Shown here: one piece after another, positions 43,260-62,759 of the stretch
Position numbering within the stretch: position 1 is the first letter of the stretch
How the letters are laid out: every line of letters begins with the position of its first letter
Origin: an uncultured Candidatus Saccharibacteria bacterium
Lineage (GTDB): Bacteria; Patescibacteriota; Saccharimonadia; Saccharimonadales; UBA10212
Length of the DNA stretch: 64,000 bases
Reading direction: 5' to 3'
Assembly (NCBI GenBank): GCA_965231085.1
Contig: OZ246413.1
Span: 603,234-667,233 of the forward strand
The notes under the pieces: model-generated
Seen by the model: the letters and a program-made list of their open reading frames with translations, nothing else
What the model was told of the DNA's origin: nothing
Databases searched by the model: none
Translations under genes and position numbers: made by a program

Positions 43260-44639
43260 ATGCAAGATAGTTCGCTATGGCAGGCCGTTTTGGGAGAGAT
43301 CGAACTGAGTGTTTCACACGGTAATTTCGTGACTTGGTTTAAGAATACTCAACTTATAAAACAGAAGGACGGCGTTGTTGTTGTTGGTGTGCCTAATGTT
43401 TTTGTAAAAAACCAGCTGGAGAGAAAATTTAACGAGCTACTTTTAGCTGTTCTTAAGAAAAACGAGGTTGATGCAAATAACATTGAGTATAAGATCCACA
43501 CCGGGATAGCCCCTAACTCTCGTAAAGATGAGTCTGGTGTGCTAGACAACCCCACATATTCCCCAGCAAAAAAACCTGTTTTGCCTAGGCGCTCAATCGC
43601 CAATATCACCCACTCATATAGACAGGGCTTAAACGAAAAATACACTTTTGAGACTTTTGTAGTTGGAGCTGGCAACGAGCTAGCCTACGCAGCTTGTCAG
43701 GCAATTGTTGGCAAGCCGGGCACTAAATACAACCCACTATTCCTGTATGGTGGAGTGGGTATTGGTAAAACCCACCTTATACAGGCTGTTGGTAATGCTA
43801 TTTTGGCTGCGAAGCCTAATTCGCGGATTGTATACGCCTCAACTGAGCAATTTGTTCAAGAATTTGTCGATGCCATAAGATTCAAAAAAAACACCGGAGA
43901 CTTTGCCGATTTTTATCGTAGCGCTGATGTGCTGATAGTTGATGATGTCCAATTTTTAGCCGGTAAGGAGCGAGTCCAGGAGGAGTTCTTCCACACCTTT
44001 AATGCCCTGCACCAGGCTAACAAGCAAATTATTATTAGTTCGGATAAGCCGCCCAGGGATATCCCGACGCTCGAGGAGAGACTCCGCAGCCGTTTTGCTT
44101 GGGGGATGACAATAGATATGCAAACTCCAGACTTCGAAACCCGCTGTGCTATCCTTCAGACAAAAGCAAGTACTCAAGAAATCGAGCTGCCATCAAGTGT
44201 CATGGAGTTTTTGGCTGGCAGGGTCCAGAATAACATTCGAGAGCTAGAAGGGGCCCTTAACCAAGTTTTGGCCTTTTGTGAAATGAGGGGTGTTGAACCG
44301 AGCATAGAGGTAGTACAAAGTATTTTTGAAGCTGAACGTAATCGGCCAAAGCACGTTAGCGCTAGGCAGATAATTGAAAAAACCGCTAAGTACTTTCATG
44401 TGTCTATGGACGACATATTGGGACCCAAACGCGACAAAGATATTGTTGTCCCACGACAAATTGCAATGTATATGCTTAGAAGCGAACTACACTTAAGTTT
44501 CCCAAAAATAGCCCATGAACTGGGCCGGAAGGACCACACTACCGCCATCCACTCTATCGAAAAAATTCAAAAGGAGTCTAGTTTTGATGGTCCCATAAAA
44601 CAGTACGTCTCGGAATTAAAGGAGAAACTATATGTATAA
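43260..44639 (+). CDS. dnaA: chromosomal replication initiator protein DnaA
   Basis: 459 aa. Walker A GGVGIGKTHL, DDVQFL, and the C-terminal DNA-binding signature (GRKDHTTAIHSIEKI). Confidence 0.98.
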   Translation: MQDSSLWQAVLGEIELSVSHGNFVTWFKNTQLIKQKDGVVVVGVPNVFVKNQLERKFNELLLAVLKKNEVDANNIEYKIHTGIAPNSRKDESGVLDNPTYSPAKKPVLPRRSIANITHSYRQGLNEKYTFETFVVGAGNELAYAACQAIVGKPGTKYNPLFLYGGVGIGKTHLIQAVGNAILAAKPNSRIVYASTEQFVQEFVDAIRFKKNTGDFADFYRSADVLIVDDVQFLAGKERVQEEFFHTFNALHQANKQIIISSDKPPRDIPTLEERLRSRFAWGMTIDMQTPDFETRCAILQTKASTQEIELPSSVMEFLAGRVQNNIRELEGALNQVLAFCEMRGVEPSIEVVQSIFEAERNRPKHVSARQIIEKTAKYFHVSMDDILGPKRDKDIVVPRQIAMYMLRSELHLSFPKIAHELGRKDHTTAIHSIEKIQKESSFDGPIKQYVSELKEKLYV

Positions 44640-44882
44640 GATTGTGGAAAAATTGTTCAATTCTTGTGCTCAAAAACTGGACTTTTCCAGACTTTACACA
44701 TCAATTGAAAACACCAGACAACAAACCATATTTTTTATACAAGTTATAAGCTCAGGTTTTTCACAGAAACTAACCGCTTTTAAACAGCCTATTAGCCACA
44801 AATTTGATCTTGTGAGTGGTTTTTTATGCACTGTTTCCACAAACCCTACTAAGACTACTAAATTATATAAAGGAATAAATTA
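44640..44882. other. oriC part 2: DnaA-box cluster between dnaA and dnaN
   Basis: TGTGGAAAA at 44643-44651, TTTTTCACA at 44757-44765, TTAGCCACA at 44792-44800, GTTTCCACA at 44833-44841. AT-rich tract at 44730-44750. Confidence 0.65.
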
Positions 44883-45974
44883 ATGAAACTCCAAGTAACT
44901 CAAGCCAATCTAGCCAAAGCCCTAAACTCAGTTGCCCGAGTAGCAAGTAATAGAGGGACTTTGCCTATTCTAGCCAACGTTTTAATTAAAACCGAAAACA
45001 ACAGACTTAGCATTTCCGCTACCAATCTAGATATTGCGATAACCCATTTTGTTGGCTCTAAAATAGAAGCCGATGGGGCTATAACAGTGCCAGCTAGATT
45101 AATGCAAGATTTCGTTAGTAACCTACCCGATAGCGTTATAAATCTAGAGCTTGAGGACAACAAACTTCACATCAGTACAGACAAACATAAATCTACAATC
45201 AACGGGGTTAGCGCAGAAGACTTCCCTGTTATGCCAGCAATAAGCGAGGATATTTCTTGGGTTGAGACAGCCGCCGATTTTAAAAAAGCTATCTCGCAGG
45301 TTGTTTTTGCCGCTAGTAACGATGACGCCAGGCCTGTTTTAACAGGAGTATATTTCCATACGAAAGACAACAAAGTGTTAGTTGCTGCCACCGACAGTTA
45401 CCGTTTAGCAGAATCGGTCCTGGGGGCCACCAAAACCAACCAAAACTTTCTAGTTCCCTCCTCGGCTATCTCGGATTTATTAAGAATTATTTCAGATACC
45501 GACAAGGAGGTTATGGTTAATCATGACGATCAGCAGGTTATGTTTAAGGTGGGGGAGGTTACATTAGTAGCAAGGCTCATCGAGGGCAATTATCCTGACT
45601 ATGCCAAACTAATACCCACCAAATTTGCCACCATAGCCAAGCTTTCCAGAGCAGATTTTACTAATATTGCTAAGGTTTCTAGTTTGTTTGCAAGGGAGAG
45701 TGCTGGCAGTATCACTATTAAGGTAGATAAAACCACCAAAAGCGTTAGTATTAATGCTGTGGCCTCACAGCTTGGCGAAAACACAGCAACCGCTGATGCC
45801 GAGGTGGTTGGGGTTGGGGAGGTAACACTAAACTCAAGATACCTAATAGAGGCTCTGGGGGCTTTCTCTGGGGATGATATAGAGTTTTGTTTTAACGGCA
45901 AACTAGAGCCATGTATATTAAGAAGCCAGAGCGAACCAAAATACACACATTTGATAATGCCGCTTAGAAGCTAG
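44883..45974 (+). CDS. dnaN: DNA polymerase III beta sliding clamp
   Basis: 363 aa. MKLQVTQANLAKALNSVARVAS...LPILANVLI is a typical DnaN N-terminus, and the gene follows dnaA. Confidence 0.97.
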   Translation: MKLQVTQANLAKALNSVARVASNRGTLPILANVLIKTENNRLSISATNLDIAITHFVGSKIEADGAITVPARLMQDFVSNLPDSVINLELEDNKLHISTDKHKSTINGVSAEDFPVMPAISEDISWVETAADFKKAISQVVFAASNDDARPVLTGVYFHTKDNKVLVAATDSYRLAESVLGATKTNQNFLVPSSAISDLLRIISDTDKEVMVNHDDQQVMFKVGEVTLVARLIEGNYPDYAKLIPTKFATIAKLSRADFTNIAKVSSLFARESAGSITIKVDKTTKSVSINAVASQLGENTATADAEVVGVGEVTLNSRYLIEALGAFSGDDIEFCFNGKLEPCILRSQSEPKYTHLIMPLRS

Positions 45975-46000
45975 CCTGGTTAAACTGCTAGTATATAAAA

Positions 46001-47065
46001 ATGATAATCAGTAGTTTGAGACTACAAAACTTTAGGTCATACAAGGACAGCACCTACATTTTGGGCCCGGGGGTAAATGTTGTTTTTGGTAAGAACGCTA
46101 GCGGAAAAACCAACCTACTAGAAGCGGCGCTGGTTTTATTACAGGGCAAATCATATAGAGCGAAAGACAAAGATCTTATTAGAGGTGGTTCCGAATGGGC
46201 AAGGTTGGATGCTGGTATTGACGGTGACAAAAGAACTGTAAAGATTAAGGCTGATGGTGGACGGACTGAAAAAGAATTTGAGTTTAAGGGTAAAAACCAT
46301 AAAAAATTAGGTTTTTCTAGCCGTCTACCAGTAGTTGTGTTTGAGCCAAATCACCTTCAGCTAATTACTAGGGGCCCCGATCAAAGGCGAGAGTATGTAG
46401 ATGATATCCTAGAGAGAATTAACCCGGAATATAAAAGCCTAATCAATAAATATAGGCGGTCTTTAGCCCAAAGGAATCACTTGCTAAAGCTTTCTAGGGG
46501 CCAAGCCTCGTCTGGGCAAATGTTTGTGTGGGACCTTAAGCTGGCTGAGATTGGCGAGCAGATAGCCCTAGCTAGGTTTAATTTAGCCAAACAACTAAAT
46601 AGCAGGCTGAGTGAGAAGTATAGTTCAATCGCAAAAAATAAGGCCAACATTGAACTGGAGTATCTTAGCCACTTCCCTATCGACCAATATGCGACCCAGA
46701 TGGTTAAACGGCTAGAAAAAAACATCAAAGAAGATATGCTCAGGGGTTTTACTGTTTACGGCCCACATCGGGAAGCTCTAGATTTTAAGATTAATGGCCA
46801 GCCCATGTCGGTGGTTGGTTCGAGGGGCGAAGTAAGAAGTTTAATGCTTGCTCTAAAGATTTTAGAGCTTGATCTTGTTGAGCATGCTCATGCAGATAAA
46901 CCAATTTTGCTGCTAGACGATGTTTTTTCTGAGCTCGACTCAGGACGCCGGCGGGCGCTAGTTGGGTCAATTAAAGGTTTTCAAACAATTATTACTACGA
47001 CTGAAGCCGACTCGCTACCAAAGACGCTCAAAACCGGTCCGTATAGAACTATAAGAATTAAATAA
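46001..47065 (+). CDS. recF: DNA replication and repair protein RecF
   Basis: 354 aa. LQNFRSY, Walker A GKNASGKTNLLEA, and C-terminal LLLDDVFSELD. Confidence 0.95.
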   Translation: MIISSLRLQNFRSYKDSTYILGPGVNVVFGKNASGKTNLLEAALVLLQGKSYRAKDKDLIRGGSEWARLDAGIDGDKRTVKIKADGGRTEKEFEFKGKNHKKLGFSSRLPVVVFEPNHLQLITRGPDQRREYVDDILERINPEYKSLINKYRRSLAQRNHLLKLSRGQASSGQMFVWDLKLAEIGEQIALARFNLAKQLNSRLSEKYSSIAKNKANIELEYLSHFPIDQYATQMVKRLEKNIKEDMLRGFTVYGPHREALDFKINGQPMSVVGSRGEVRSLMLALKILELDLVEHAHADKPILLLDDVFSELDSGRRRALVGSIKGFQTIITTTEADSLPKTLKTGPYRTIRIK

Positions 47066-47068: not shown

Positions 47069-47983
47069 TCATTTAACGGCCAGGATTTGCTTTATAGCTT
47101 GTTCGGATTGGTCGCTTGGTACTTGCACCAGCGACTCTCTTTCCATCCTGTCCGGCAAATCACCCGAATCGGATATCCAAACCATACCGCTGCGCGTCCA
47201 GGGGTTTTTGCCTGGGACAGAAAGATAGCCGTCTTTGGTTGAGGTGGACTTAACTAAACCCGGGTTGTCGCCTGGGTGGCCAAGGATAAGCAGTTGCTCC
47301 GGGTGGTTGTTGACTAGATCTGTTATGTCAACGACGCTTCGTAAAAATATATCCATCACAGTCTTCCCTGTCGGGTGTGGATCCTTGTCGTAGGCCCAGT
47401 CGCTGGTGTCTGTATAGCCTATTCCATGGTAGAACCGTTGCTCGTACTGCCTTCTGCCGATAACAAAGACGTGGCCATTATCCCTGCCGATTAAGCAATC
47501 CACAAAAACCTGATAATCACTGTCGGGCAGCCAGCCCCAAGGCCTTTGTTTTGGATCGCTTTCAGTGGATAGCCAAGTTGGAACCGGCCTTTGATCGGTA
47601 GCCAATATCGCGATCCCACCGTAAAACAAATTAGGGGTCTTTTTTTTGGTTATCATGTCCATGAATTTGAGTTGATATAGCATATGTTTACGGAAGGAGG
47701 GGGGGTAGTTATTTATATCACCCGGGTCATCCGGAAGGGTGAGTGTGTTTGGACCAAGCCTCAACTTATTAGCCTCTACGCTATTAATGGGGCCTTCTTT
47801 GCTAGCCAGGTTGGCGGCAGCAGCAGCTGGGGCCTGGCTGACTTCGTGACTGGCGTGGGCTGTAGCCCCACCAAAACCTAGCCCGGCAACGCTCATTAGA
47901 GCCAGGGCCCCTGCCCGCCTTACGCGGTTTTTGGGGTGCGGGTGGTTAGAGGGGTCCGTCTCTCGGGGTCTATGGATAGGCAT
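47069..47983 (-). CDS. hypothetical secreted protein with twin-arginine-like signal peptide (last gene of the T4SS-like operon)
   Basis: 304 aa. The N-terminus reads KNRVRRAGALALMSVAGLGFGGATAHA-S. Local GC is high (hand counts 35/60 and 41/60). No domain recognised. Confidence 0.6.
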   Translation of the reverse strand: MPIHRPRETDPSNHPHPKNRVRRAGALALMSVAGLGFGGATAHASHEVSQAPAAAAANLASKEGPINSVEANKLRLGPNTLTLPDDPGDINNYPPSFRKHMLYQLKFMDMITKKKTPNLFYGGIAILATDQRPVPTWLSTESDPKQRPWGWLPDSDYQVFVDCLIGRDNGHVFVIGRRQYEQRFYHGIGYTDTSDWAYDKDPHPTGKTVMDIFLRSVVDITDLVNNHPEQLLILGHPGDNPGLVKSTSTKDGYLSVPGKNPWTRSGMVWISDSGDLPDRMERESLVQVPSDQSEQAIKQILAVK

Positions 47984-48027
47984 AAGCGAACAATATCATC
48001 GAGCTTAGTTTTATGTCAAACTTGCCG

Positions 48028-48507
48028 TTAGTCACTGGTAACTACGGTCGTTCCCGGTCCAGTTAATTTAATACTGATAACAAACTGTGTAGCCGGCGAA
48101 TCTTGCTTGATAGTCGCTTTTATAACGTCGTCACCAAGATCCCACTTAGCTGTGCCCGGCATAACTTTCGCGTAGGCAGCTGGCACGGTGCCAGTTTTGG
48201 TTGTGATAATTGCTTGGATTTGGGCTAAGGCCGAATCATACTGACCGGGGCCCAGAAGGCCGCTAAGCTCACCACTATTTAATAAAAAGAAAGCTTGGCT
48301 AGGACTTTCAGAATTTTGGTTGGGGTAATACTCTAAGCTTTGCCCAGTGTCTTTATCAACAATTGTTATCTTTTTTTCCGGGCTCTGGCTGACGATTTTG
48401 TTATGATTATTTATCAAAATTATAATCAAGCTAACCACTCCAACCACAAACACTACAACTCCCAAAGACAAAATGCTTAATCTGCGATTCATGGTGTTAT
48501 TGCCCAT
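48028..48507 (-). CDS. hypothetical bitopic membrane protein (candidate VirB8-like component, unverified)
   Basis: 159 aa with an N-terminal TM helix (LSILSLGVVVFVVGVVSLIIILI) and a domain of about 120 aa. The alternative start at 48492 forms an ATGA overlap with the upstream stop. Confidence 0.6.
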   Translation of the reverse strand: MGNNTMNRRLSILSLGVVVFVVGVVSLIIILINNHNKIVSQSPEKKITIVDKDTGQSLEYYPNQNSESPSQAFFLLNSGELSGLLGPGQYDSALAQIQAIITTKTGTVPAAYAKVMPGTAKWDLGDDVIKATIKQDSPATQFVISIKLTGPGTTVVTSD

Positions 48508-49760
48508 AAGTTTTGCAACCCAGCGTTTGTTAAATCATCACTACTGTAACCATTAGAGTTTTTAGGATCGTTTTGAGGCGGCAGGCTGGTATTAGGATCT
48601 CCTAGAAGAAAGTCACCGTTGGGGGTTAAAGCCCTCAGAACCAATATGTGACCATTTGCGGTGAATGGCCCGGGGTCCTTCGGGCCCTTACCGGCAGCGA
48701 CCACTAGTCCGCCCTGGGCTAGGGTTTGGGCTGCCAGGGTTAGGTCCTTGCCGATACTTCGGGCATTAAGGCCGTAGGCTTTTGCCACGTCTGGGAACAA
48801 GCCCCAGTCGCTTCCCTGGCCCGTGCCATCAGGACCACCGGGCACATGGTGAGAGCCAAAATTTGCGGCTATAGTATCAGGAGTTACAGTTTGGCCCGTA
48901 AGGTTGGTAACCACCATAGCCATCGAGGTAGGGCCGCAACCAGACTGGCTTATATCGCCAAGGCTGGTTGGACCATATGGGGCGTCTTTCCACCTATCGT
49001 CGAATTGGCTAAATAGTACAAAATTATCAATTAACGAGTAGCCAGTGAAGCCACAAGAAAGTGCCGGACCAGCATCGGATATAATATCGCCAAACCAAGC
49101 CTTTAGTTGAGTGATATAAGTGGCGGTATCGTTTTCTCCCTTAGGGGCATATTTGTTTATGGCTGCATCAATTGTGGTCAATCCCTGAGAGATATATACG
49201 TCAAGTAAATATTGGGGTTCGCTGTAGGCGTCGTTAATATCAACACTGGCTGCAAAGGAATCCCATTTATACCAATGAGTAATCTTGCCATTACTGGTCG
49301 AATCGAGATGGGGCTGGGATTCTGATGCTTGGCGCCCAAAAGCGTTGTTGGCTTTTATGGTTACTGTTCCGGTTGTGCCAAAGCCAGATTCTTTTCTAGC
49401 AATACTCGCAACAAGCATCGGGTTAACACCGTATCTTATAGAGCTCTCAACTATCTGTGGGCCTAGGCCGGCAAACGGCGAGCTTCCGCCCCCGCCATCG
49501 ACAATGAACTTGTTAATTGCATCAGCTAGGCCGCCAGCATCGTTGATAGGAGGAGTTTTTAGGCTGTAGCAGCTGTTACCGAGGGCCGCTGCCAGCCCGG
49601 CGCTAACATTATTGGTGTCTACTCGGTAAAAATATACTCCCTGGGCGAAAGAATCACGTTGCTCGGGTGATAAAGCATAGGTCTGCGAAGGTATGCAAAA
49701 CAGCATAACCGATAAACTGATAAGCAAAAAAACTTTATTAAAAGTAGTTGATTTAAACAT
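48489..49760 (-). CDS. secreted bifunctional cell-wall hydrolase: lysozyme-like N-domain plus C39-like papain-fold cysteine peptidase C-domain
   Basis: 423 aa with a signal peptide. The region SSIRYGVNPMLVASIARKESGFGT is lysozyme/transglycosylase-like. The C-terminal QSGCGPTSMAMVV (catalytic Cys) and NGHILVL (His) are typical of Peptidase_C39_2-like domains. Confidence 0.75.
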   Translation of the reverse strand: MFKSTTFNKVFLLISLSVMLFCIPSQTYALSPEQRDSFAQGVYFYRVDTNNVSAGLAAALGNSCYSLKTPPINDAGGLADAINKFIVDGGGGSSPFAGLGPQIVESSIRYGVNPMLVASIARKESGFGTTGTVTIKANNAFGRQASESQPHLDSTSNGKITHWYKWDSFAASVDINDAYSEPQYLLDVYISQGLTTIDAAINKYAPKGENDTATYITQLKAWFGDIISDAGPALSCGFTGYSLIDNFVLFSQFDDRWKDAPYGPTSLGDISQSGCGPTSMAMVVTNLTGQTVTPDTIAANFGSHHVPGGPDGTGQGSDWGLFPDVAKAYGLNARSIGKDLTLAAQTLAQGGLVVAAGKGPKDPGPFTANGHILVLRALTPNGDFLLGDPNTSLPPQNDPKNSNGYSSDDLTNAGLQNLWAITP

Positions 49761-49762
49761 AT

Positions 49763-52700
49763 TTAGTTATTAACCTTCACGCTAAATATCTTTGTTGTTT
49801 TATTGCCGCCGGTATCGGTGGCCGTTACAGAAACAGAATATACTCCGTTTGGCATCTTGGTAGTATCCCAGTTTTTAATCAGATAATAATTGTAGTTGCC
49901 CGCCGCGGTTGTTGAGTTCTGAATTGTGCCGGTTGCATAAATTTGGTCTAATATGTCGGCACTACACATTACTTTGCCAAAGTCTTCCGCCATTTTTGTA
50001 TCCATTACGGTATTACCTTGTGCATCGCTAACGCTCCAACTGATTGTGGCTGGTGACAAAATTGCGTTATCCCAAGGTTTGGGCGGTTTAATAGGTGGAG
50101 TGTCATATGCATTGACTACAAGATCGACGGTATTGGTAATGTTGGTTGTGCCATCAAGAGTGCCGTCAGCTTTAATGATACTTAGAGAGCTTACGGCAGG
50201 AGCGGTGTTGTCTTTGTAGGGCGTCAAGGCCCCGGCTCGTAGTGGATTAACGTAGTAAACCTTACCATCTGGCCCCCGATGACTTTCTGCTAAATGCACA
50301 TGGCCCCAGCTAGTCGCGACATGGCCTATTAACTGGTGCTGCTTCACTTTGTCACCGTTTGAAACTATACCAGTATAATCAATGTGCCAGTAGTCCAACA
50401 TTTTATCGGCGGACACGATGGAAATAGATTGGCCACCGCTGACATGTACCTCGCCAGGCTCAATGGCGTACACAGGGGTCCCATCATCCGCCGAAATATC
50501 GATTCCGAAATGGAAGGCCTGTGAATCGGCGGTGTCTATGTCCTTACTTCCCGAAAAACGTGGGTCATTAAGGTTGGCTCTTACGGCGTGCTGCTGATCA
50601 AAAGGCGTGATGGGCCAGCCATAACTGGTTACAGTCGGGACGGTCATATAGTTGCTGCAAACCGGAGTAAAGCTGCCAACCACACTAGCGTTAGCTTGAG
50701 AATTGGCAGCGGGGGTGGTTGAGGTTGAGCTGGCAGGAGCCGAGACTTGGGCCGTGGTAGCCGTCGTGTCGGAAGGCTGGTCAAAACCAAGGTCGGCACA
50801 AGCAGAAGCGCTACCATCAACGTTTTCGTAGCAGCCAGCCCCATCGATGGTGATAGTATCCATTATAAAGAACCGGACCTTTAGCCAATTAGAGTCTGGA
50901 TCAGAAGCACAATCATCTTTTAGGGTTGCTTGGTTGGGGGATGAGTTGGCGTCGCTTGTGACTCCCCAGACTCCAGACGCGTCCTTATAAATCTTAGCTC
51001 CAAAACATCTTTGGGCCTTAGCTATATATTTATTACCATCTTTGGATTCTAGTAGGTTGACAACCGCCTCAGCATTAGCATACGGATTTGCAAAGTCCGG
51101 GTTGTTCATGTCTGTTTCTGAAAAGCCTACCTTTTGGATACCATAGTTATAGCCGCTACTAGCTGCTGCTGCCGGCTTGGAGAAAATTTTAGTGAGCGAA
51201 CCAAAAGCCTTGGGTATATCGATAATGGCTGAGCCAAGCCGAGCCAGGTTACTAGAAAAACTATTTGATGATTGATCAATTAGTTTAGACACAGCACTGT
51301 GGCTATCGTGGGTATTTAAAAGTTTATAGGCGATACTCTGAGAATTAAATTGGTCAGCTTGATTTGTTTGATCTATAGCCCTTAGGGCTACAGCTTGCTG
51401 GTCGGTTAACTTGACGCCACCAAGCGAAAGAGCTTGGTCGTTGCTGGCAAGCAAAGCCCCGTAGTTAATGTAGTTACCGCGCTGGGGCCCGTTGAGGGCT
51501 TCATCGTTGGGGCTAATTGGGTTACCAGCCAACCATCTGCCAGTCACGTCTTCACCCTGACCGATTAGATAGCCTTGTATCGGAGCAGTTGCTAATTGGG
51601 CTACTACTGAAGTACCAGCGGTAAAGATTGTTACGGCGAAACCTATTACCTGGCCTGGTAGACCACACGCAGCACCGGTAATCGATCCAGTGGTGCCAGT
51701 ATTCAGGAAATGAAATGGTGTGTACACATCGTTTAGACTTTTGAGGGTGTCATCGGGCTGTACATACTTGTTAGCGTTGGTTGCATCGGCATTACCAAGC
51801 TCACCTTGGATGCTGGCAGCGGAATACCAGGTTTTACCTGAAGAGTCTTTAAGTTGAGAGGCATAGTAATTCATCTGGTCTAAGTTCACATTAAAACCAT
51901 TTTGGAAGTTGCCCCCCTGGGATAAAGATAATCCCCCCATTCTCATTAGTGGCAGGTACACCCCTGTTTGCTTTAAAGCAGGCGCATGGTTATCAATTGT
52001 CTTTAGTGAGCAGACAAGGGCAATTAAAAATGTACCTTTTGTTACCCCCGACTTAATGCCTGTTTTGAGGTCGGATATTGCTGTAGTAGAACCCTTTTTT
52101 AACGCTAGGCCAGTTTTCTCAGCGGTCGTGCTTAGTTCATTGGTCTGGGTAACGGCATCATTAATAGCGGCTTGCTCTTGCGGGGTTGTGGTTTTTGGGT
52201 CCTTACTTGCCCCAGTTGCGGTGATTTTTTCGGTGGTGAAACCTCTGGTTACATAGGCATCTTCTTTTGCAGCGGTTTCCGTATCAGTGATCTTTTTTCT
52301 AGCAGAGTTAGTAGCGGCCTTCTCTATTTTGGACTGAACATTAGCAGTCCATTTATCAGTCGGGTGCCAGCTTATTCCAGCCCGCTTTGTCATTAGTCCG
52401 GTACCAACAGCCGAGGCTTTGGCATCAAGGCCAATAGCTTTGAATAGAGCGTAATTTGATTTATATGCGTTTGCGTACCCCTCGGGGATTGTGACCATTG
52501 GTCGGCCACTGGTGTCCTCACCAAATACTAGATTTGATTCACCAAGATTTTTCTTAGCCGCGGCAATGGCTTCGTCCTTACTCATCTTGTAATACGGCGA
52601 TTTTGGTGAAGCCCTATCAAGCACATAACCTTCAGCCAAACCAAAATTTCGTGAATAGCTTGCGACAAGTCCTTTTTCGGCCAATTTATTCTCAAAAACA

Positions 52701-53371
52701 TCAGCCAATTTATTACCAACTAAGCCCATCCTGGTTCGTTCCACAGTGCCTTTTGTGTAGTTTCTGGCGTAGCGCAGGCTATGCATTAATCGGTTATCTT
52801 GCTCATTCTCAAGACTTGAATAATGAAACTGCCGCAAAAGCTGAGAGATATGGATAAACTGCAATGGCCCAGAGGAAAGTGTTAATAGCATGACCAGTCC
52901 AACAATACCCCCAGCTATGCCGCCACCAATGGTTGCCCGTCGCCCCGGGCGCCTAAAGCGAAACCAAGGCCTAGGCGTCTCAACCTGTTTATATAAGGAG
53001 TTGGAATCTGCCCCACCTCCCAATTTTTCCTGTTCAGCTTGACTGGCTAAGTCTGCTTGTGTCTGCCCGGCTCCGTTCTTTTCAGCCTTTGCTAATTCGT
53101 CATCGGTAGCGGGCTTTTTACCAGCATTTTTTTTGTCGGCTACACGTTTGCCGGTAATAGTCGAGGGCTCATTACCAGAGCTCTCGTAAACCCCCTGGCT
53201 ATCCTGATTGGCTTTTTCTGATAAAGGAGTTGAAGCGCGCTGGTCTATGGCCCGCTCTTCGTCTTTGCCTATGCCTGTATTGAAACCCATACCTTCGTCG
53301 CTAGGCGGCAAGGGCTCCCCTTTGTACCAGTCTGTATCTTCCTGTTGCGGCTCTAAAGTAGCTTTAGCCAT
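49763..53371 (-). CDS. giant membrane-anchored protein with C-terminal M23 (LytM) metallopeptidase domain and Ig-like tail
   Basis: 1202 aa. An acidic, disordered N-terminus of about 145 aa precedes a TM helix (IGGGIAGGIVGLVMLLTL) and a large external region. M23 motifs are FHFGIDISADDGTPVYAIEPGEV and WGHVHLAE. Confidence 0.75.
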   Translation of the reverse strand: MAKATLEPQQEDTDWYKGEPLPPSDEGMGFNTGIGKDEERAIDQRASTPLSEKANQDSQGVYESSGNEPSTITGKRVADKKNAGKKPATDDELAKAEKNGAGQTQADLASQAEQEKLGGGADSNSLYKQVETPRPWFRFRRPGRRATIGGGIAGGIVGLVMLLTLSSGPLQFIHISQLLRQFHYSSLENEQDNRLMHSLRYARNYTKGTVERTRMGLVGNKLADVFENKLAEKGLVASYSRNFGLAEGYVLDRASPKSPYYKMSKDEAIAAAKKNLGESNLVFGEDTSGRPMVTIPEGYANAYKSNYALFKAIGLDAKASAVGTGLMTKRAGISWHPTDKWTANVQSKIEKAATNSARKKITDTETAAKEDAYVTRGFTTEKITATGASKDPKTTTPQEQAAINDAVTQTNELSTTAEKTGLALKKGSTTAISDLKTGIKSGVTKGTFLIALVCSLKTIDNHAPALKQTGVYLPLMRMGGLSLSQGGNFQNGFNVNLDQMNYYASQLKDSSGKTWYSAASIQGELGNADATNANKYVQPDDTLKSLNDVYTPFHFLNTGTTGSITGAACGLPGQVIGFAVTIFTAGTSVVAQLATAPIQGYLIGQGEDVTGRWLAGNPISPNDEALNGPQRGNYINYGALLASNDQALSLGGVKLTDQQAVALRAIDQTNQADQFNSQSIAYKLLNTHDSHSAVSKLIDQSSNSFSSNLARLGSAIIDIPKAFGSLTKIFSKPAAAASSGYNYGIQKVGFSETDMNNPDFANPYANAEAVVNLLESKDGNKYIAKAQRCFGAKIYKDASGVWGVTSDANSSPNQATLKDDCASDPDSNWLKVRFFIMDTITIDGAGCYENVDGSASACADLGFDQPSDTTATTAQVSAPASSTSTTPAANSQANASVVGSFTPVCSNYMTVPTVTSYGWPITPFDQQHAVRANLNDPRFSGSKDIDTADSQAFHFGIDISADDGTPVYAIEPGEVHVSGGQSISIVSADKMLDYWHIDYTGIVSNGDKVKQHQLIGHVATSWGHVHLAESHRGPDGKVYYVNPLRAGALTPYKDNTAPAVSSLSIIKADGTLDGTTNITNTVDLVVNAYDTPPIKPPKPWDNAILSPATISWSVSDAQGNTVMDTKMAEDFGKVMCSADILDQIYATGTIQNSTTAAGNYNYYLIKNWDTTKMPNGVYSVSVTATDTGGNKTTKIFSVKVNN

Positions 53372-53381: not shown

Positions 53382-55301
53382 TTACGCTTTGCTTTGCAAG
53401 TCTGCAGGGTTTAGGGGCGCCCCCTGTGAACTGGGTTGAACTTGGTCTGGAGCTGCAGCTTGAGTTTCTTCAACCACGCTCGGTGTAGTTGATATAAGGT
53501 CAGTTTCAGTCTGGCTGGCGATTACCTGAATATGAACATGGTTTTGCCCGGCAAAAAACAAGCCCTGGCCAATCGGGAACTGGCTAAGACGCTTCTTTTC
53601 CTCACTAGTTAGCTTAAATACATCAGCCAAAACATCGACTGCGGTCGGCGACTGTTTCATCAAAAACTGCATGCTAGCGTTGGCTACAATAGCTCGACCC
53701 ATCCGCGATGCCATAAAATCCTCAACGTCTTGGGTGACAGTTGTAATACCAAGATTGTACTTTCGGGCTCGTTTAGCCAAGCTAAATAAAAAGTTAGCAC
53801 TATCTTCGTAGCGCATTAACTGCCAGGCCTCATCCACGATGAGTATTCTTCTTTTTCTGTCGGCCTTAGTTTTGTTCCATATGTAATTAAGCACAATGTA
53901 CATGGCGACCGGCCTTAACTCATCTTCGAGGTCACGAATATTAAAGACAACCATAGGATTATCAACGTTAACATTACTTTGCTGGCTGAATATGCCAGCA
54001 AAAGTACCACTAGTGTATTTTCTAAGTCTTTGTGCTAATTGTGGGCCTGAGCCGCCCATGTGCAGCAAAGTATCGTAAAGATCATTAATAGTTGGTGGCG
54101 TAGAACCATGCGTGAGGGGGTCGTTTGTAATTCCGACTTTGGCATAAGTTTCTATTAGGGCCGCGTCTAAGTCGGCTTCCTCGGCTGGTGTTAGAGCTGG
54201 TATGGTAGACGACGATCCTTGCAGAATTTGGACCTGGGCTCCGCCGAGCATCAGACGTAGCAGCCCATGCAAAGTTATTAGGTTTGATCTAAGCGCGTTG
54301 TCGCTTTCTTCAGAATCAACAACTTTGGGTAGATCAAAAGGGTTAATCCGGGTAGCACTGTTAAGACTTAACCGTACATAAGCTCCACCTACAGCGTCAC
54401 TAAGTTTTTGGTATTCATTTTCCGGATCGACAATAAATATCTCGGTACCGAACATCATACTGCGCAGGGCTTCGAGTTTCACAGCAAAGCTTTTACCGGC
54501 ACCGGATTTTGCGAATACTACGCTGTTACCGTTTTCCAGGCTAAATCGGTCAAAAATAACCAGTCCGGAGTTATTCATATTAACGCCGTATAGGATGCCA
54601 TTATCTTGGGTTAAATCAGAGCTGGTAAATGGAAAGGTTGTTGATATAGCACCGGTATTCATGTTGCGGTAAATCTGTAATTGATCGCTAAATTGAGGGA
54701 TGGTACTGTTTAGGCCCTGTTCTTGTTGAGCGCTGGCCGGCTTAGAGTATATAAGCTGTTGGCCCAGCAGACTCTCAACTTTATGCGATACAAACTCAAG
54801 CTCCTCCATGGAGCCGGCGTAAATAGTAAAATACAGCCCAAACCGGAAGAAGCGTTCTTCCCCGACTTGAAGTTTATCGCGCATCTCTTCAGCGTCCTGG
54901 ACGGCTGCTTGCTTACCTGGGTCTCGGACTTTACCCTGCTCTGAATCAATTTGAATACCGGCCTCAAGTTGTGAAACTTTTCGGCGTAGGTTGTTTAGTA
55001 CTATTTGACTATCAACTGGTTGTACGATCATCGACAGGTCAATCACCTCGTCCAAGTTCACCATGCTGGAAATCCACCCTGTATATAACTCGCGAGGATA
55101 CCCGTAGACATAGTAGGTTCGAGCGTAGCGAGTGCCGAGTTGGAAGTTGGTGGTGCTAAAAATTAGTGAACTTGGGGCAATAAAATCCCGCAGCGCAGTT
55201 ACGCCTTTGTTAAAGGCACTGGCAACGGCAGCCTGCTCTTGTACGGCAGCAGCCAAAGCTGGGTCTTGTGGTAATTTATCCTTTTTACCAAATAATTTCA
55301 T
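53382..55301 (-). CDS. virB4: VirB4-family type IV secretion ATPase (PrgJ/TraE/TrsE-like)
   Basis: 639 aa. Walker A VVFAKSGAGKSFAVK, Walker B RILIVDEAWQLM, ARKYNLGITTVTQ, and an N-terminal YVYGYPRELYTGWIS pattern typical of VirB4. Confidence 0.9.
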   Translation of the reverse strand: MKLFGKKDKLPQDPALAAAVQEQAAVASAFNKGVTALRDFIAPSSLIFSTTNFQLGTRYARTYYVYGYPRELYTGWISSMVNLDEVIDLSMIVQPVDSQIVLNNLRRKVSQLEAGIQIDSEQGKVRDPGKQAAVQDAEEMRDKLQVGEERFFRFGLYFTIYAGSMEELEFVSHKVESLLGQQLIYSKPASAQQEQGLNSTIPQFSDQLQIYRNMNTGAISTTFPFTSSDLTQDNGILYGVNMNNSGLVIFDRFSLENGNSVVFAKSGAGKSFAVKLEALRSMMFGTEIFIVDPENEYQKLSDAVGGAYVRLSLNSATRINPFDLPKVVDSEESDNALRSNLITLHGLLRLMLGGAQVQILQGSSSTIPALTPAEEADLDAALIETYAKVGITNDPLTHGSTPPTINDLYDTLLHMGGSGPQLAQRLRKYTSGTFAGIFSQQSNVNVDNPMVVFNIRDLEDELRPVAMYIVLNYIWNKTKADRKRRILIVDEAWQLMRYEDSANFLFSLAKRARKYNLGITTVTQDVEDFMASRMGRAIVANASMQFLMKQSPTAVDVLADVFKLTSEEKKRLSQFPIGQGLFFAGQNHVHIQVIASQTETDLISTTPSVVEETQAAAPDQVQPSSQGAPLNPADLQSKA

Positions 55302-56173
55302 TGGGCAGCTCCTTGCATATTCGGTTTGGGTGGTTCGCCTTGCCCCTTGGTAATGACTGGAGCAGTTAGGTCGTTAAAATTCTTTAATTGCTGTCGAGTA
55401 GCCGTATCGGGGTTATAGGCATCATAGTAAAGTTCGATAAGCTCCTGGGTATCCAGCGGGACGCTTTGTACCCCACACTCCAGCAACCCTTGCATCGCAG
55501 CTTGGACCCTGTTGCGCAGTTCGGTTTTAGCCTTTTCAAGCTGGGCTTCGTCAATTACGACCTTATTTTCTCTTTGAGGTTTAATAAGTTCTCCCACTCC
55601 GCTAAAAAACCCAGTCCCTTGTTTTAAGGCGCTTTTTAGCTTTTGGTCTGGCTCAGGGTATTGGATTACTACATAAAATTTCTTGTCCATAATGTTTGTT
55701 TCTTGGGATATCTCGGATAAAAAGCCAACATAGTCCTCAACCAAAAGCCCCAGCAACATATTTTCTTGCTGGCTTCTAATTTTGGCTAACTTTTCGAGAT
55801 ACGGCCGTAAATCTATTTTTTGACTGCGTACAAAGATCTGGATTGGGAAATATAAAGAGTTCAGAAAACCCTGGTAGCTATACTCAACGGCTTCCCTTTC
55901 TTCAGGGCTCATTAAGTCAAAGTTTATCGACCGGCACATAATGACGGCTCTAAAAGTCCCGTCGTTCATGATTACTATGCCATCTCTGATTTCGCTGATG
56001 AGTAAGGCGTTTTGGGTGCTATTGGGGTTGGTCTGAGCCGGCTGGACGTTAGGCTGGATAACTTGGCCGTTGACTATTGGAGCACTCACAGGGCCCCCGG
56101 GGGATAATACCTGGCCAGGCACATTCATGCCCTGAGCTGTAGTATCTGTGTTTGGCGTTTGCCCGTCGTTCAT
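55298..56173 (-). CDS. hypothetical T4SS-operon protein, possibly a detached VirB4 N-terminal-like domain
   Basis: 291 aa, overlapping the virB4 start by 4 nt. The patterns IRDGIVIMNDGTFRAVIMCRSINFDLMSPEEREAVEYSYQGFLNSL and LDTQELIELYYDAYNP resemble my recollection of the N-terminal region of monoderm VirB4 proteins. Unverified. Confidence 0.4.
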   Translation of the reverse strand: MNDGQTPNTDTTAQGMNVPGQVLSPGGPVSAPIVNGQVIQPNVQPAQTNPNSTQNALLISEIRDGIVIMNDGTFRAVIMCRSINFDLMSPEEREAVEYSYQGFLNSLYFPIQIFVRSQKIDLRPYLEKLAKIRSQQENMLLGLLVEDYVGFLSEISQETNIMDKKFYVVIQYPEPDQKLKSALKQGTGFFSGVGELIKPQRENKVVIDEAQLEKAKTELRNRVQAAMQGLLECGVQSVPLDTQELIELYYDAYNPDTATRQQLKNFNDLTAPVITKGQGEPPKPNMQGAAQ

Positions 56174-56200
56174 TAATCCACCCTTTTAAGCATTTAAATA

Positions 56201-57166
56201 TTAAAGCGGCCCAACCGTTGCTCCATTACCCAGCCCACTGTTAGCCAGGCGCGCGATAGTCGCCACGCTAAGATCATTACCATAATTCGCTAACTCCATT
56301 TTAACAGCCCCGCTTGTAGGTGTCATTACGACCTCACGAGTAGCGCCCTTGATTATCTTCGGAGGATGTAGCGTGAGTTCTCGTTGCTGTTCATGGATTT
56401 GGCGCAAAAGCTTTTCCTCAGCTAGCTTTGTGTTGTCAGCTGCCACCTGTGTTTGAGCTTTAGGAGTAGCGGTTTTAGCACGTTGTGCCTCTTGCCGGGC
56501 CGCTTCAAGCTGGTCAGCAATTTGTTGTTTGCGTCTTTCCTCGGCCTCAACCATCATAAATTGCACCTTTTGAGCCTTTTCATTATTCTGCTCATCTAAG
56601 ATATCGTCCTCTGGCTTGATATCAACTTCCGGTATATCTTTAGCCAGGGTTGTGCCTGTAGCCAACCTATCTTCGCTCGCTTCGGTCGTCTGAAACGCAA
56701 CCTGGGGGGCAACATTTAGAGCCGCATTTCTTATGGCCCAGCCTCGGCTGTCTAGTGTACTGGCAAGAGCCTGCAGCCGGCTAGATACTTCAGTTTGGCT
56801 GATATTTTTGGTGAATATTTGACTAGTTTTTTTTGGCACAGTTATCGCAACCAGTTCCTTAGTACCGCTCTGGTCCCATTTGCGCTCTCGGTTCTTTAAT
56901 AAAAACTTCACTCTTGATAATAACCAGACCTCTGTGGGTTGCTCCCTGCCGAGAGGTGAGGCCAAAACCCCAAACAAAACCATTGGCGGCGTGGCCAAAC
57001 ATATGATCACAATTTTTATTATTGACGGAATCGAACTTATGGCCAGCCGGATACAAATAAATAGTAATATCGCCGAAACCCCAGCGTATACAAAACCCTT
57101 TAAGGTTAGGGGGCCAAGGAGCTTGTCCTCAGCCTCGATGTCCTGAATTACCTTATAAACTGCCAT
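56201..57166 (-). CDS. PrgI-family (VirB3-like) T4SS membrane protein with long charged coiled-coil-like C-terminal extension
   Basis: The N-terminus MAVYKVIQDIEAEDKLLGPLTLKGFVYAGVSAILLF plus two TM helices is the PrgI-family pattern. The C-terminal ~190 aa are rich in E, Q, A and K. Confidence 0.75.
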   Translation of the reverse strand: MAVYKVIQDIEAEDKLLGPLTLKGFVYAGVSAILLFICIRLAISSIPSIIKIVIICLATPPMVLFGVLASPLGREQPTEVWLLSRVKFLLKNRERKWDQSGTKELVAITVPKKTSQIFTKNISQTEVSSRLQALASTLDSRGWAIRNAALNVAPQVAFQTTEASEDRLATGTTLAKDIPEVDIKPEDDILDEQNNEKAQKVQFMMVEAEERRKQQIADQLEAARQEAQRAKTATPKAQTQVAADNTKLAEEKLLRQIHEQQRELTLHPPKIIKGATREVVMTPTSGAVKMELANYGNDLSVATIARLANSGLGNGATVGPL

Positions 57167-57208: not shown

Positions 57209-60200
57209 TTAAGGAGTTTGAGGTGGTGGTTGTGGTGGTTCCTGTGGAGATTCTGGGGGTTGGTTTCCTGGACCCTGGGACAGAAGATCATCGCGGGCTG
57301 GACCACCTTCGACTGTATCCCTATCAATTCCGGCGCCAGGCCGTACGCCAGCTCGGTTAAGAGCTCTTCTCGTACCCTGTTCGGAGCCACGAGCAGCTCC
57401 CATTCGGGTAGCTTCTTCGATGTCTTCTAGACTTCGTCTATCGATGTGCATCTCCGGGGATGTTATATTCTGAGCTGTTCCACCTTGAGGTGAGTGCAAA
57501 TATGGCGTTTCATTTGGCGGTATGTCATTGCGCGGCCTAGGTGTTCCACCGCCACCGCCAGCGTTAGTATTGTTGTTCTGATTAGTATTTCCCCCACCAC
57601 CATTTTGCCCACCGCCGTAACCAAAGTCTCCTGGTTGTGCTGCTGGCCTATGGACAGGTGGAGGGGCGGTGCCTTGTTTTGCAGCTTCAATCAGGGATGG
57701 AATTGAAACTCCGGTACCGTCGAGCGCGCTTTCAAGATCGACGGCTATACTGCTGCCGGCTGGACCTGACATTTTCTGTAGCGTAGGAATTCCTTGAGGA
57801 CCGCTAGCCGCGATTGACTGTAGTAGTTTCGCAAACTTCTCGCGTACTACCGGGTCCTTAGCCCGAGCAATTGCCTGGTAGTAGCCCTGGGCAACATCAC
57901 CAATATTGTTAGCATCGATGTAAGAGTCATCGATTGACAACATAAGACGGTGTCTATCGCTCAAGCGTTTGCCTTTATATCTTTCGCGAACTCGTCTATC
58001 TTCTTCTACGTTGCCAGATACCCCTATGCCTAGTTCGGTTAGGTTTTTATCATTATAGCGGGACTGGAGTAGAGGTGGGTTTAGATCCGGTCGAGCTTTT
58101 GTTACCTTGCCCCAGTATTCGGCATTAGTGTCCTGAATACCTTCAAATTCGGCTATCATGTGGGGTCTGACCAGTATTTTACCGTCAACAGTTCTTGGGA
58201 TTTCATCTTCAGCATATTCTTTTAAGATGTAATCACGTAATCTGCGGTGATAATCGCGATTAGGGTTGTTAGGGTTGTCTGGGTCCAGTGCTTCTCCGGT
58301 GTTTTCAGTCTCAATCCAGGAGCTGGTGTCCATCCATTTTTCCATAGCAACTTTACGCTCGCGGTCAGTGCCATAAAGAATGGCTTTCCAGATAGCTCGT
58401 TTTCCGGCGCCGACTCCTTTTTGACCCTTAGAATAATGCTTCATAACCCATCCGCCTTGACCGTTGTTTGCATTATCGTCGTAACCCCAAACGTCGGTAT
58501 CAAAGCCCTCTTTTTCGGCAACTTCAAACTGCCTATCAACATAGGCCCGCTGTTCGGCATCGCGTTCTTCTTTCCACTCCTTATATTTTTTAACCGTTAG
58601 GGCTCGGCCACGGGCTGTCGGCATCAGACTGCCTGATGCCAGACGAGGCAAAACTCGGCCACCAACCATAGGCACGCTGAATTTTTTGCCCTTAATACTA
58701 AACTGTCGGTTACCATAACTAGCCGTTGGGTCAAATGGGTCGTAGGCTGAATTCTTGCCCTTCCATCGGTCGCGGTTTTCTTCGAGAACCTTGCGACCAC
58801 CCTCTTTAAATTTATTGAGCCCTTTGCTATTGGCGATAGCGTTATTAGCAGAAGCCATAATCGAACCGCCCCATTTGAAAGTTTTTGGTAGGAAGAAGTA
58901 AGGCCCAAAGAACCCAGCCATAACGGCAATTAAGTCTAGTGGCCCGGCGTGGCCCAGCCCACCAGCTACCCAGGCAAAGATTCTACCACCATAGATCATA
59001 GCCATAACCATCGGAAATAGCAGCAGAGTTTTGGTAAAGTTTTCTTTCCATTTTTTCCAATAGCTGTCAGTTCCAGGTAGTACCCAAGCTAGAAAGGCTA
59101 GCGGCGAAAGTATTACCAAAATGATTATTAGAGCGTTTCTAAATAGCAATGTGCCCATAGCGAGCAAGATGCTAACAATGATAGAAAAGGCCATTATTAG
59201 CAGCGTTGGCCAGTACAGAAAGACAAGTGTGGGCCCGAGCAGCAGAGCAGTTATGGATGCTGTACCACCTACCGCCCCTGCCCAATAAGCACTTAAGCGG
59301 TTAAGTAAGGCCGGGAGCTCTAGTTGACTCATCCCGCCAAAAGGAGCGGCTATTAACTGCCCTATTCCCTGTCCGAAGTCGTTGGCGATCTGTATTAAAT
59401 ACACACACATTTGCCAAGATATTTGGATTAGTATCACCGAAACCACAAGTCGTGGTAGCAGCTTTTTGATAGTGTAGGCGTCAAGGGGGCCGCCACCAAT
59501 GGCTTGCCCCAGAACCATTAGAAGCATAACTATTACTAAAATTACAGAAACCAAATTTTTTATAATTGCCCAGGCTTTCTCGACGGAGCCGTTATCTGGC
59601 AGGTTTTCATGGATACTGAAGTTCAAAGACGAAGAAACCCAGTCATTAATTACACCTGCCGCATCACCTATCCCTTTGACTACTGGGCATATTATCCAAT
59701 CAAGCCCGGAATTTGTTACGCAGCCAGTAATTGACGTGTCACCGCCTCCCCCTGTTTTACTGTATGTGCCACTGAGTATCACGGAGCGTGTGTAGTTTGT
59801 GGGGTAAATAACCTGACACCGCGGATAGGCTTTACCAATAGCGGTTGTCGGATCGCCATTGCCAATGGCCGCTAGCGTGTACAGTGTGCCGGCGTTGCCA
59901 TTAGCTTCATTTAAAATAACCACATAATTACCGCCGCAAGCGCCGCTAGCATCTTGAGCGTAAATGGTGCCAGTAGCGTCCCCTGTTTGTTGGTTTAAAC
60001 CACTCAATCCAGACTTGGTGGATATCGATTTTATAGTTGAGCCTGACCACGCTAGGACCTCGGTAGCAACCGCTCCAGTATTATCTATATCAAACTTAAA
60101 AACCTTAGAATCATTACCACTCCTACAGGCACCATTGCCAGAAGCCGTTGTGTCGTAATAAGGTATGGTAGCTGTTATGGGTAGTGGGTTGGCAGCCTGC

Positions 60201-62004: not shown

Positions 62005-62306
62005 AATTATTAGACATGGCTGCTCAAACCTCACTAAAGATTCTTAATACTCAAGAAACTCCCAACTTGCCAACAGCAACACCTAATCATGCTGCTTTCA
62101 GCAAAGCTTTTACTACGCTTTTCGTGATAATTGGTGCGGTGGCCGTTCTGTTAATAGTTATTGCTGGGCTGCGCTATATATTGTCTGGCGGCGATGCCAC
62201 AAAGGCAGCAGAAGCTAGACGGTCGATAATTCACATTGCCGTTGGTTTGATAGTTGCCAGCCTTGCTTACTCAATTGTTACTCTTATAGTGAGTAGGTTG
62301 GCATGA
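62001..62306 (+). CDS. T4SS pilin-like protein, paralog 3 (short, no Cys)
   Basis: 101 aa. IIGAVAVLLIVIAGLRYILSGGDATKAAEARRSIIHIAVGLIVASLA. 4-nt overlap with paralog 2. Confidence 0.7.
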   Translation: MKLLDMAAQTSLKILNTQETPNLPTATPNHAAFSKAFTTLFVIIGAVAVLLIVIAGLRYILSGGDATKAAEARRSIIHIAVGLIVASLAYSIVTLIVSRLA

Positions 62307-62749: not shown

Positions 62750-62759
62750 GAGTTTAAAA

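Follow-up and report, generated by a model that had tools for sequence, protein, structure and literature searches.

Why should a Saccharibacterial chromosome carry three kinds of wall-cleaving domain inside a type IV secretion system (T4SS) operon, and whose wall might they cut? We addressed this question for two adjacent genes in a 64,000-nt stretch of DNA, here called the window (contig OZ246413.1, positions 603,234-667,233, forward strand; assembly GCA_965231085.1), which encode a secreted 423-aa protein and a 1202-aa membrane protein. Saccharibacteria cannot grow epibiotically without their T4SS, whose role was called 'completely unknown' in a 2024 perspective. On the two hydrolase genes the literature searched offers a single sentence, in a published survey of Patescibacterial T4SSs, which states that 'peptidase and lysozyme homologues' may replace VirB1. 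We find that the 1202-aa protein belongs to a large family which, as judged by sequence, combines one conserved scaffold with exchangeable C-terminal enzymes from at least a dozen families, and we propose that the two proteins probably open the wall for the T4SS.

The original prediction, made from the letters of the window, held that three wall-cleaving domain types are distributed over the 423-aa and 1202-aa proteins of a monoderm-type T4SS operon. All three domains match Pfam families above the cut-offs, and the interval given for the two genes, 48489-53371, is exact. The smaller protein has the following features.

48489-49760, minus strand: gene for the 423-aa two-domain hydrolase, in the position of SEML1_0006 of Ca. 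Southlakia epibionticum ML1 (open reading frame (ORF); Pfam domains; position shared by seven related loci)
49674-49760, minus strand: Sec-type signal peptide, residues 1-29, ending SQTYA before LS (hydrophobic N-terminus at residues 4-31; cleavage site placed by eye)
49233-49460, minus strand: Pfam Glucosaminidase (GH73) match, residues 101-176, with E124 (Pfam; KES motif conserved)
48591-49022, minus strand: Peptidase_C39_2 papain-like domain, residues 247-390, with C275 and H371 (Pfam; fold matches)

The C39_2 match (59.3 bits against a cut-off of 24, E = 8e-16) covers the whole profile, and all six C39_2-bearing homologues retain C275 (GCGPTS) and H371 (NGHILVL), in agreement with the C39-like cysteine peptidase that had been proposed. 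The GH73 match (PF01832) is marginal and partial, at 32.2 bits against 30.2 and covering profile positions 2-75 of 123. E124 (IARKESGFG) is kept in the four closest homologues, P0008-P0011; the glutamate in the ES.G motif of GH73 has a catalytic role. The predicted 'lysozyme-like segment' (ARKESGFGT) thus stands as a predicted glycan-cleaving domain, but its type is GH73 glucosaminidase and not SLT. The AlphaFold2 (AF2) model of the protein has low confidence (predicted local distance difference test (pLDDT) score 64). In Foldseek searches its C-terminal half gave weak, coherent matches to the pseudomurein endoisopeptidase PeiR, Alr0975, staphopain and the ComA peptidase domain (probability up to 1.0, E at least 2.6e-3), and the N-terminal half of the same pLDDT 64 model gave weak matches to the GH73 autolysins SagB, Acp, LytB and AtlE (E = 0.09-1.7). 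Searched against the PDB by sequence, as a single sequence and as a profile, the protein has no significant match, and in phages (gut, Enterococcus and Eggerthella phages) it finds scattered matches to C39_2 alone, which are uninformative.

The C39 peptidases that process bacteriocins as N-domains of ABC transporters were considered and set aside. The 423-aa protein is stand-alone, Sec-secreted and fused to a glycosidase, and Pfam and NCBIfam scans of eight operon proteins revealed no ABC exporter. The 'C39-like' label refers to the fold and not to a bacteriocin-processing function. A further motif, YISQGLTTIDAAINKYAPKGENDTATYI (residues ~185-215; window ~49116-49208, minus strand), is conserved in homologues of the protein. 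Its '…YAP..ENDT..Y' pattern has a sub-threshold match (E = 0.21) to PDB 9vvp_L 'Gp29' (…YGRQGYDSIEKIINRWAPPNENDTKAYI…), a likeness that may reflect a common lysozyme-associated helix.

The third domain forms the C-terminal tip of the larger protein.

49763-53371, minus strand: gene for the 1202-aa T4SS scaffold-hydrolase, in the position of SEML1_0007 of Southlakia and of PrgK of pCF10 (ORF; gene order)
49766-50626, minus strand: full M23 + Ig-like module, C-terminal tip, residues 916-1202 (match to a secreted Gaiellaceae M23 protein)
50309-50515, minus strand: Pfam Peptidase_M23 match, residues 953-1021, with H954, D958 and H996 (the HxH, H1024 and H1026, lies just downstream of the match)

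The M23/LytM domain proposed near the C-terminus is recognized by Pfam (PF01551, 34.5 bits against 28.7, residues 953-1021), and PDB matches of the tip include 6smk, lysostaphin and LytM. All five active-site residues are present: H954 and D958 (FHFGID), H996 (DYWHI), and H1024 and H1026 (GHVHLAE). The HxxxD and HxH motifs align to AHYGVD and PHVH of LytM and also to the lysostaphin motifs, while H996 aligns to the histidine of YGHM in 6smk and lies two columns off that of LytM in the phmmer alignment. Every residue that could be checked of the M23 HxxxD/HxH and of the C39-like Cys/His is therefore in place. By these motifs the tip appears catalytically intact and would be expected to act as an endopeptidase. 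The 'Ig-like' end fared less well, as its FlgD_ig match reaches 14 bits against a Pfam cut-off of 27, but relatives of the M23 module retain it.

The remainder of the 1202-aa protein is a membrane-anchored scaffold.

52937-53371, minus strand: residues 1-145, N-terminal region with low conservation and variable length, predicted to be cytoplasmic (precedes the only strong transmembrane (TM) helix)
52847-52936, minus strand: TM anchor, residues 146-175 (Kyte-Doolittle 19-residue mean of 1.95 in the window protein, 1.97 family mean)
50759-52972, minus strand: conserved scaffold, residues 134-871, mostly helical, with six near-invariant cysteines (profile search, AF2, Foldseek)
51584-51682, minus strand: conserved Gly/Ala-rich hydrophobic stretch, residues 564-596 (Kyte-Doolittle mean of ~1.5-1.76 in the window protein)

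About 800 aa of external sequence and an acidic cytoplasmic N-terminus of about 145 aa had been predicted. A large conserved scaffold is indeed found; it comprises ~700 residues, after which comes a linker of ~45 aa with a high content of S, T, A and P. The first 145 aa are acidic to a small degree only, with 25 D+E and 22 K+R, and a strongly basic cluster, RPWFRFRRPGRR, abuts the TM helix on its N-terminal side; by the positive-inside rule this fits an N-in topology. A strong TM helix at positions 144-179 is seen across the family, and we infer that the protein is anchored N-in, C-out by this one helix. Family-mean hydrophobic windows also occur at 562-607, which contains the near-invariant C569, and at 437-463, which contains C454 (~51983-52063, minus strand); the other near-invariant cysteines are 789, 821, 847 and 858. 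The AF2 model of the scaffold is confident (pLDDT 80.8, pTM 0.84), with low pLDDT at scaffold residues 451-474, around the stretch 562-607. These two stretches may be buried core helices, a re-entrant loop or extra TM segments, and a 3-TM topology would likewise put the tip outside. The scaffold region has no family match in Pfam or NCBIfam, and Foldseek found no relative of its model in the PDB or BFVD (TM-score at most 0.11).

Word-indexed searches recovered few relatives of the 1202-aa protein, with 27-34% identity over the query (25-33% in the alignment) and differing C-termini; P0002-P0007 match at E = 1e-99 to 7e-47 over 58-68% of the query, and the conserved scaffold takes up ~730 positions after the N-terminal TM helix. 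When 1.84 billion cluster representatives were scanned with a scaffold profile, 1,779 clusters matched at E ≤ 1e-3, of which 900 also reached E ≤ 1e-30. Together with SEML1_0007, which is linked to it by synteny, length and annotation, this is a Saccharibacterial T4SS scaffold family that is still without a name.

The sequence beyond the scaffold was surveyed in 153 family representatives. Tails of at least 60 aa are present in 127 of these, and 26 are shorter than 40 aa, some of them possibly truncated by contig ends. A single BLAST-linked cluster with VanY (PF02557) members (VanY/LAS) accounts for 97 of the 127 tails. The remainder comprise a beta-lactamase-like group, Amidase_2, Amidase_3, M15_4, M74, M14 and one Alginate_lyase2 (E = 5e-33); several unannotated tails are NlpC/P60-like by eye, and GDSL and Amidase_5 tips are found in other relatives. 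The M23 + Ig tail is present in one representative, the window protein itself. The protein with the alginate lyase, P0057, comes from outside the window and has a 535-aa tail in which Alginate_lyase2 replaces a peptidoglycan hydrolase. Rare tips are spread across scaffold similarity space, and the nearest scaffold neighbour usually has a different tip; the scaffolds of an Amidase_2 protein and a VanY protein are 59% identical. This distribution implies repeated replacement of the tip. An M23 neighbour is already visible in the Southlakia supplement, where the 'Peptidase M23 domain-containing protein' A0A0G4B0T2 is listed among the structural neighbours of SEML1_0007 (PMC10633639).

Residues 916-1189 of the window protein share 43% identity (E = 3e-71) with a secreted 302-aa Gaiellaceae M23 protein, HKB94742.1, over its whole mature length. 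The alignment starts precisely with the mature N-terminus (YGWP…) and spans all active-site motifs and the Ig-like part. A total of 450 M23 + Ig relatives were found. Among the best 120 of these, 119 are free-standing proteins of 245-342 aa, Arg-rich and typical of high-GC organisms, with a median R/(R+K) of 0.84 compared to 0.20 in the window tail, and 89 of the 120 share the three active-site motifs. The four clusters that carry organism names are all from Actinomycetota, and one homologue sits in an ordinary chromosomal context on a contig of 63% GC. Since cultivated Saccharibacteria grow on Actinobacteria, this affinity to the host phylum is suggestive; the direction of a transfer, and what it would mean, are inferences. 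A recent horizontal transfer is unsupported, as the module has the GC content of the operon (47%) and the same Lys bias, so that any transfer is old. A 245-aa fragment with 60% identity to the window tail also has native-like composition. Two other origins were rejected: a phage lysin, since the module has no match in phage genomes, and a diverged LAS/VanY tip, since the M23 tail has no BLAST link to the other tails and aligns along its whole length with an entire stand-alone protein.

The genetic context ties both proteins to the secretion system. The T4SS core lies immediately upstream.

53382-57166, minus strand: VirB4 (639 aa), TrsD-like split VirB4 N-domain (291 aa) and PrgI/VirB3-like protein (321 aa) (NCBIfam, Pfam)

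An ORF check places the two hydrolase genes on the minus strand at 48489-49760 and 49763-53371, 2 bp apart, with 10 bp between the 1202-aa gene and virB4. The genes directly upstream, with gaps of at most 10 bp, encode the PrgI-like protein (Pfam PrgI, 7e-7), the TrsD-like protein (TrsD, 4e-8) and a CD1110-family VirB4 (NCBIfam conju_CD1110, 3e-107). The locus is a chromosomal, origin-proximal T4SS operon of monoderm (MPF-FATA-like) type of Saccharibacteria. A gene of the 1202-aa type directly follows virB4 in the window, in the related loci L003-L006 and L008-L010 from metagenome-assembled genomes (MAGs), in Southlakia and in pCF10, where PrgK takes this place; in the window and in pCF10 the VirB4 is of the CD1110 family. 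The order VirB4, scaffold gene, two-domain hydrolase gene is kept in L003, L004, L005, L008, L009 and L010; in L006 the contig ends upstream of the scaffold gene and the flank there is missing. In both the window and the Southlakia gene table the scaffold gene lies between virB4 and the two-domain hydrolase gene, near recF. The scaffold-family relatives recovered in the locus survey all come from MAGs labelled Saccharibacteria, with the exception of one Babeliales label, and always have this gene context. In seven related loci the gene at the 423-aa position always has an architecture of a glycosidase with a Cys-peptidase or amidase. The domain sets in relatives are Phage_lysozyme2 with CHAP/NlpC, Phage_lysozyme2 with C39_2, GDSL with Phage_lysozyme2, and Phage_lysozyme2 with Amidase_2. 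The second gene is thus modular, with domains of PrgK itself (Phage_lysozyme2, CHAP) among its parts, which we count in favour of a role in opening the wall for the T4SS. In Southlakia, SEML1_0006, SEML1_0007 and all T4SS genes are essential by transposon sequencing (Wang et al. 2023, Cell; PMC10633639).

Two observations concern the loci themselves. VirB4 of the window is in two pieces, the TrsD-like 291-aa protein (55298-56173, minus strand) and the 639-aa ATPase (53382-55301, minus strand), whose genes overlap by 4 bp; the former corresponds to the N-terminal part of VirB4 models, and the same split is seen in related loci. The locus labelled 'Candidatus Babeliales', L004 (DATIIZ010000027.1), contains a full cassette of Saccharibacteria type (TrsD, VirB4, scaffold, hydrolase, recF), and its label is probably a MAG binning or labelling error.

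On balance, we favour the view that the two genes are dedicated wall-opening components of the Saccharibacterial T4SS/pilus machine that cut peptidoglycan locally. It is based on the operon context, the gene order of pCF10, the synteny with Southlakia and the MAG loci, the intact catalytic residues and the precedents in conjugation loci. The 1202-aa protein would be held in the epibiont membrane by its single strong TM helix, with the N-terminus inside, and from there a ~700-aa helical body would lead through the flexible S/T-rich linker to the exchangeable enzyme tip, here M23 + Ig-like. The 423-aa protein, exported by Sec, would supply a GH73 cutter of glycan strands and a C39_2 papain-like cutter of peptide or amide bonds. 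Acting at the machine, with which they would be physically associated, the enzymes would make local cuts in the peptidoglycan to let the channel and the VirB2-type pilus through the wall. The wall that is cut would be at least the epibiont's own, as for PrgK, TraG, CwlT and TcpG in conjugative systems.

Several points weigh against this view. In the account given by a 2025 review, PMC12857230, which cites Sun 2024, the muramidase is the sole active domain of PrgK, LytM and CHAP being regulatory; intact motifs are consequently no guarantee of a lytic role. The 26 tails shorter than 40 aa, even if some are truncated, suggest that the conserved function may reside in the scaffold rather than in hydrolysis. 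The extreme diversity of tips, which includes an alginate lyase, is hard to fit to remodelling of the own wall alone, and the GH73 match is marginal in a protein whose model has low confidence.

The first of these points leads to the view that at least one of the three domains binds the wall or regulates, as reported for LytM and CHAP of PrgK. The PrgK precedent, as far as that account of it goes, together with a PrgK LytM region below the Pfam M23 threshold and the partial GH73 match of the 423-aa protein, speaks for it. The five M23 residues, the C39_2 Cys/His dyad and the GH73 glutamate are nevertheless all present and conserved among homologues, and the same three motifs recur in 89 of the 120 stand-alone M23 relatives, making this the least probable of the explanations we considered. 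Nearly as improbable is that the enzymes are housekeeping autolysins for growth and division, or scavengers of muropeptides and amino sugars, that merely happen to lie beside T4SS genes near the origin. It is true that M23, GH73 and papain-like hydrolases are common as division autolysins, that the examined free-standing actinobacterial M23 + Ig homologue has an ordinary chromosomal context, and that an origin-proximal location may reflect high expression alone. Against this stand the order VirB4, scaffold, hydrolase, which divergent Saccharibacteria share with almost no space between the genes, the equivalence of the gene positions to those of PrgK and TcpG in conjugation loci, and the recovery of the scaffold family from Saccharibacteria-labelled MAGs only (one Babeliales label), always with T4SS genes. 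Tight synteny and intact active sites thus make both explanations less likely.

A more serious competitor, plausible although we would not expect it to prove right, is that the enzymes are directed mainly at the wall or envelope of the host, where the two cells are attached. The exchangeable tip presented by the scaffold would then be matched to the wall chemistry of the host and, with similarly limited likelihood, the secreted GH73/C39_2 enzyme would assist in clearing a way for the T4SS pilus or for the extraction of nutrients. The variety of tips on a single scaffold points in this direction, including an alginate lyase, an enzyme that has no peptidoglycan substrate, but the latter is a single case. 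Tips have been replaced repeatedly, so that nearest scaffold relatives usually differ, yet shuffling of hydrolase domains also occurs in ordinary conjugative T4SSs. The M23 + Ig tip is close (43% identity) to secreted M23 proteins of the host phylum, Actinomycetota, but organism names are attached to four such clusters only, and as the epibiont relies on host building blocks its own wall may resemble that of the host, in which case a match between tip and host would be uninformative. Both genes are essential in Southlakia co-culture, which would be expected equally if the enzymes merely assemble an essential T4SS. A 2026 preprint describes putative T4SS pili from a Patescibacterium towards the host envelope; a protein held in the membrane of the epibiont has its own wall to cross first. 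As a speculative extension, the family may constitute a T4SS-anchored, polymorphic device for breaching the host envelope, whose tip suits the chemistry of the host's wall or capsule and was in some cases acquired from the host phylum, whose fold-novel scaffold with its hydrophobic stretches forms part of a conduit crossing both walls, and whose tip type predicts host range. We regard this as possible rather than likely, and retain local opening of the wall for the T4SS, the epibiont's own at least, as our preferred explanation.

The rest of the operon and its surroundings are consistent in layout with Southlakia.

57209-60937, minus strand: 1242-aa polytopic membrane protein, presumed VirB6-like (hydrophobic segments at residues 451-683; position of SEML1_0011)
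61051-63736, plus strand: six small, consecutive VirB2-like T4SS pilin genes (all six above the cut-off for Pfam T4SS_pilin, PF18895)
47069-48507, minus strand: two operon genes after the hydrolases, 159 aa (one TM helix) and 304 aa (possible signal peptide), without family match
43260-47065, plus strand: dnaA, dnaN and recF, adjoining the T4SS operon on its downstream side (recF converges on the last operon gene)

Pfam and NCBIfam scans of the 1242-aa protein gave no match, and it is presumed to be VirB6-like from its position alone. It has a TTG start, an N-terminal signal or anchor followed by a ~420-aa external region containing cysteines, and a long low-complexity C-terminal tail whose end is rich in Gly, Asn, Pro and Gln. 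The pilin array is upstream of the T4SS operon and divergent from it; Southlakia too has an essential pilin array. The 159-aa and 304-aa proteins are small and probably exported. Their genes, the first of which shares 19 bp with the end of the 423-aa gene, stand where Southlakia has the essential SEML1_0005 (PEGA/Ig-like) and SEML1_0004. The 244-bp spacer between dnaA and dnaN contains an 83-aa ORF that is probably spurious.

Even if the enzymes only open the epibiont's own wall, these results annotate two essential 'hypothetical' genes and a large uncharacterised protein family. A family of ~1,800 clusters with swapped tips, one of them actinobacterial-like, turns the idea of an action on the partner's wall into predictions that can be tested: tip-specific activity on sacculi of host versus self, a correlation between tip and host, and a phenotype of catalytically dead alleles in the genetically tractable Southlakia. 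Should the device prove to be aimed at the host, the host range of uncultivated Saccharibacteria could be predicted from the tip type encoded in their genomes. In the literature searched, a scaffold of novel fold on which wall-degrading tips are exchanged seems not to have been described.

In kind, the finding is largely known from Southlakia; the specific domain set, an M23 + Ig tip with a GH73 + C39_2 partner, is new. Southlakia has dnaA-dnaN-recF, two small genes, SEML1_0006, SEML1_0007 and VirB4 in the same order as the window, and orthology of the window genes to SEML1_0006 and SEML1_0007 is indicated by synteny, size and family profile. SEML1_0007 (1113 aa) is likewise a large bitopic protein in which the C-terminal tip alone is annotated, but its tip has a Hedgehog/DD-peptidase (LAS, M15-like) fold. 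SEML1_0006 has GH73 and a cysteine proteinase domain like the 423-aa protein; it differs in its length of 643 aa and in an extra Phage_lysozyme2 (phage-tail-lysozyme) domain.

The conjugative counterpart is PrgK of Enterococcus faecalis pCF10, a VirB1-like protein of the 'DELTA' class. In pCF10 the gene order is PrgI, PrgJ (a CD1110 VirB4) and PrgK, and the 1202-aa protein takes the place of PrgK. PrgK has its N-terminus in the cytoplasm, followed by a TM helix and by wall-hydrolase domains on the outside, a layout also predicted for the 1202-aa protein; the domains of PrgK are of metallopeptidase, glycosidase and Cys-peptidase types, as in the window pair. The 1202-aa and 423-aa proteins show no sequence homology to PrgK (BLASTP E = 0.83, hhalign probability 0.13%), and the scaffold profile is likewise unrelated to it. 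PrgK has no 700-aa scaffold, carries its three domains in one chain, and has Phage_lysozyme2 rather than GH73 as glycosidase. Pfam finds Phage_lysozyme2 and CHAP in it, while its LytM region is degenerate. The original prediction of a PrgK trio redistributed over two proteins holds, but with its Phage_lysozyme2 muramidase as the only domain reported active in the account cited above, PrgK is a weaker model for three chemistries.

Polymorphic toxins and phage tail or tape-measure proteins with lysin domains resemble the scaffold family by analogy only, in having a conserved body and a repeatedly replaced C-terminal enzyme; we found no sequence or fold relationship to such polymorphic C-terminal-domain proteins, and the tips here are wall hydrolases and not intracellular toxins. 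The free-standing M23 + Ig proteins of Actinomycetota, such as HKB94742.1, are 270-340 aa long and differ from the window protein in having their own signal peptide, no scaffold, a high-GC genome and an ordinary chromosomal context. In Enterocloster bolteae pCbo51, which has a clostridial Tcp locus, a secreted C39_2 peptidase directly follows the VirB4-like TcpF, in the position of TcpG; by Pfam it has no GH73, and no scaffold gene accompanies it. TcpG of pCW3 itself we take to be a glucosaminidase + NlpC/P60 protein. The closest precedent for the trio is WP_182154977.1 of Gordonia amicalis pCP86 (annotated 'peptidoglycan DD-metalloendopeptidase family protein'), which combines M23, SLT and C39_2. 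Its neighbourhood is a T4SS-type cluster with an SCO6880-family protein, a coupling-protein-like gene and a relaxase. It differs from the window pair in being a single 611-aa chain with SLT instead of GH73, in lacking the scaffold, and in its location on a plasmid with a relaxase, which is presumably conjugative. The earlier proposal that three modules exceed what self-wall remodelling needs does not survive this comparison, because a single polypeptide of an ordinary actinobacterial plasmid T4SS already combines this trio, and C39_2 follows TcpF in a clostridial one. The three chemistries thus recur among the hydrolases of monoderm T4SSs.

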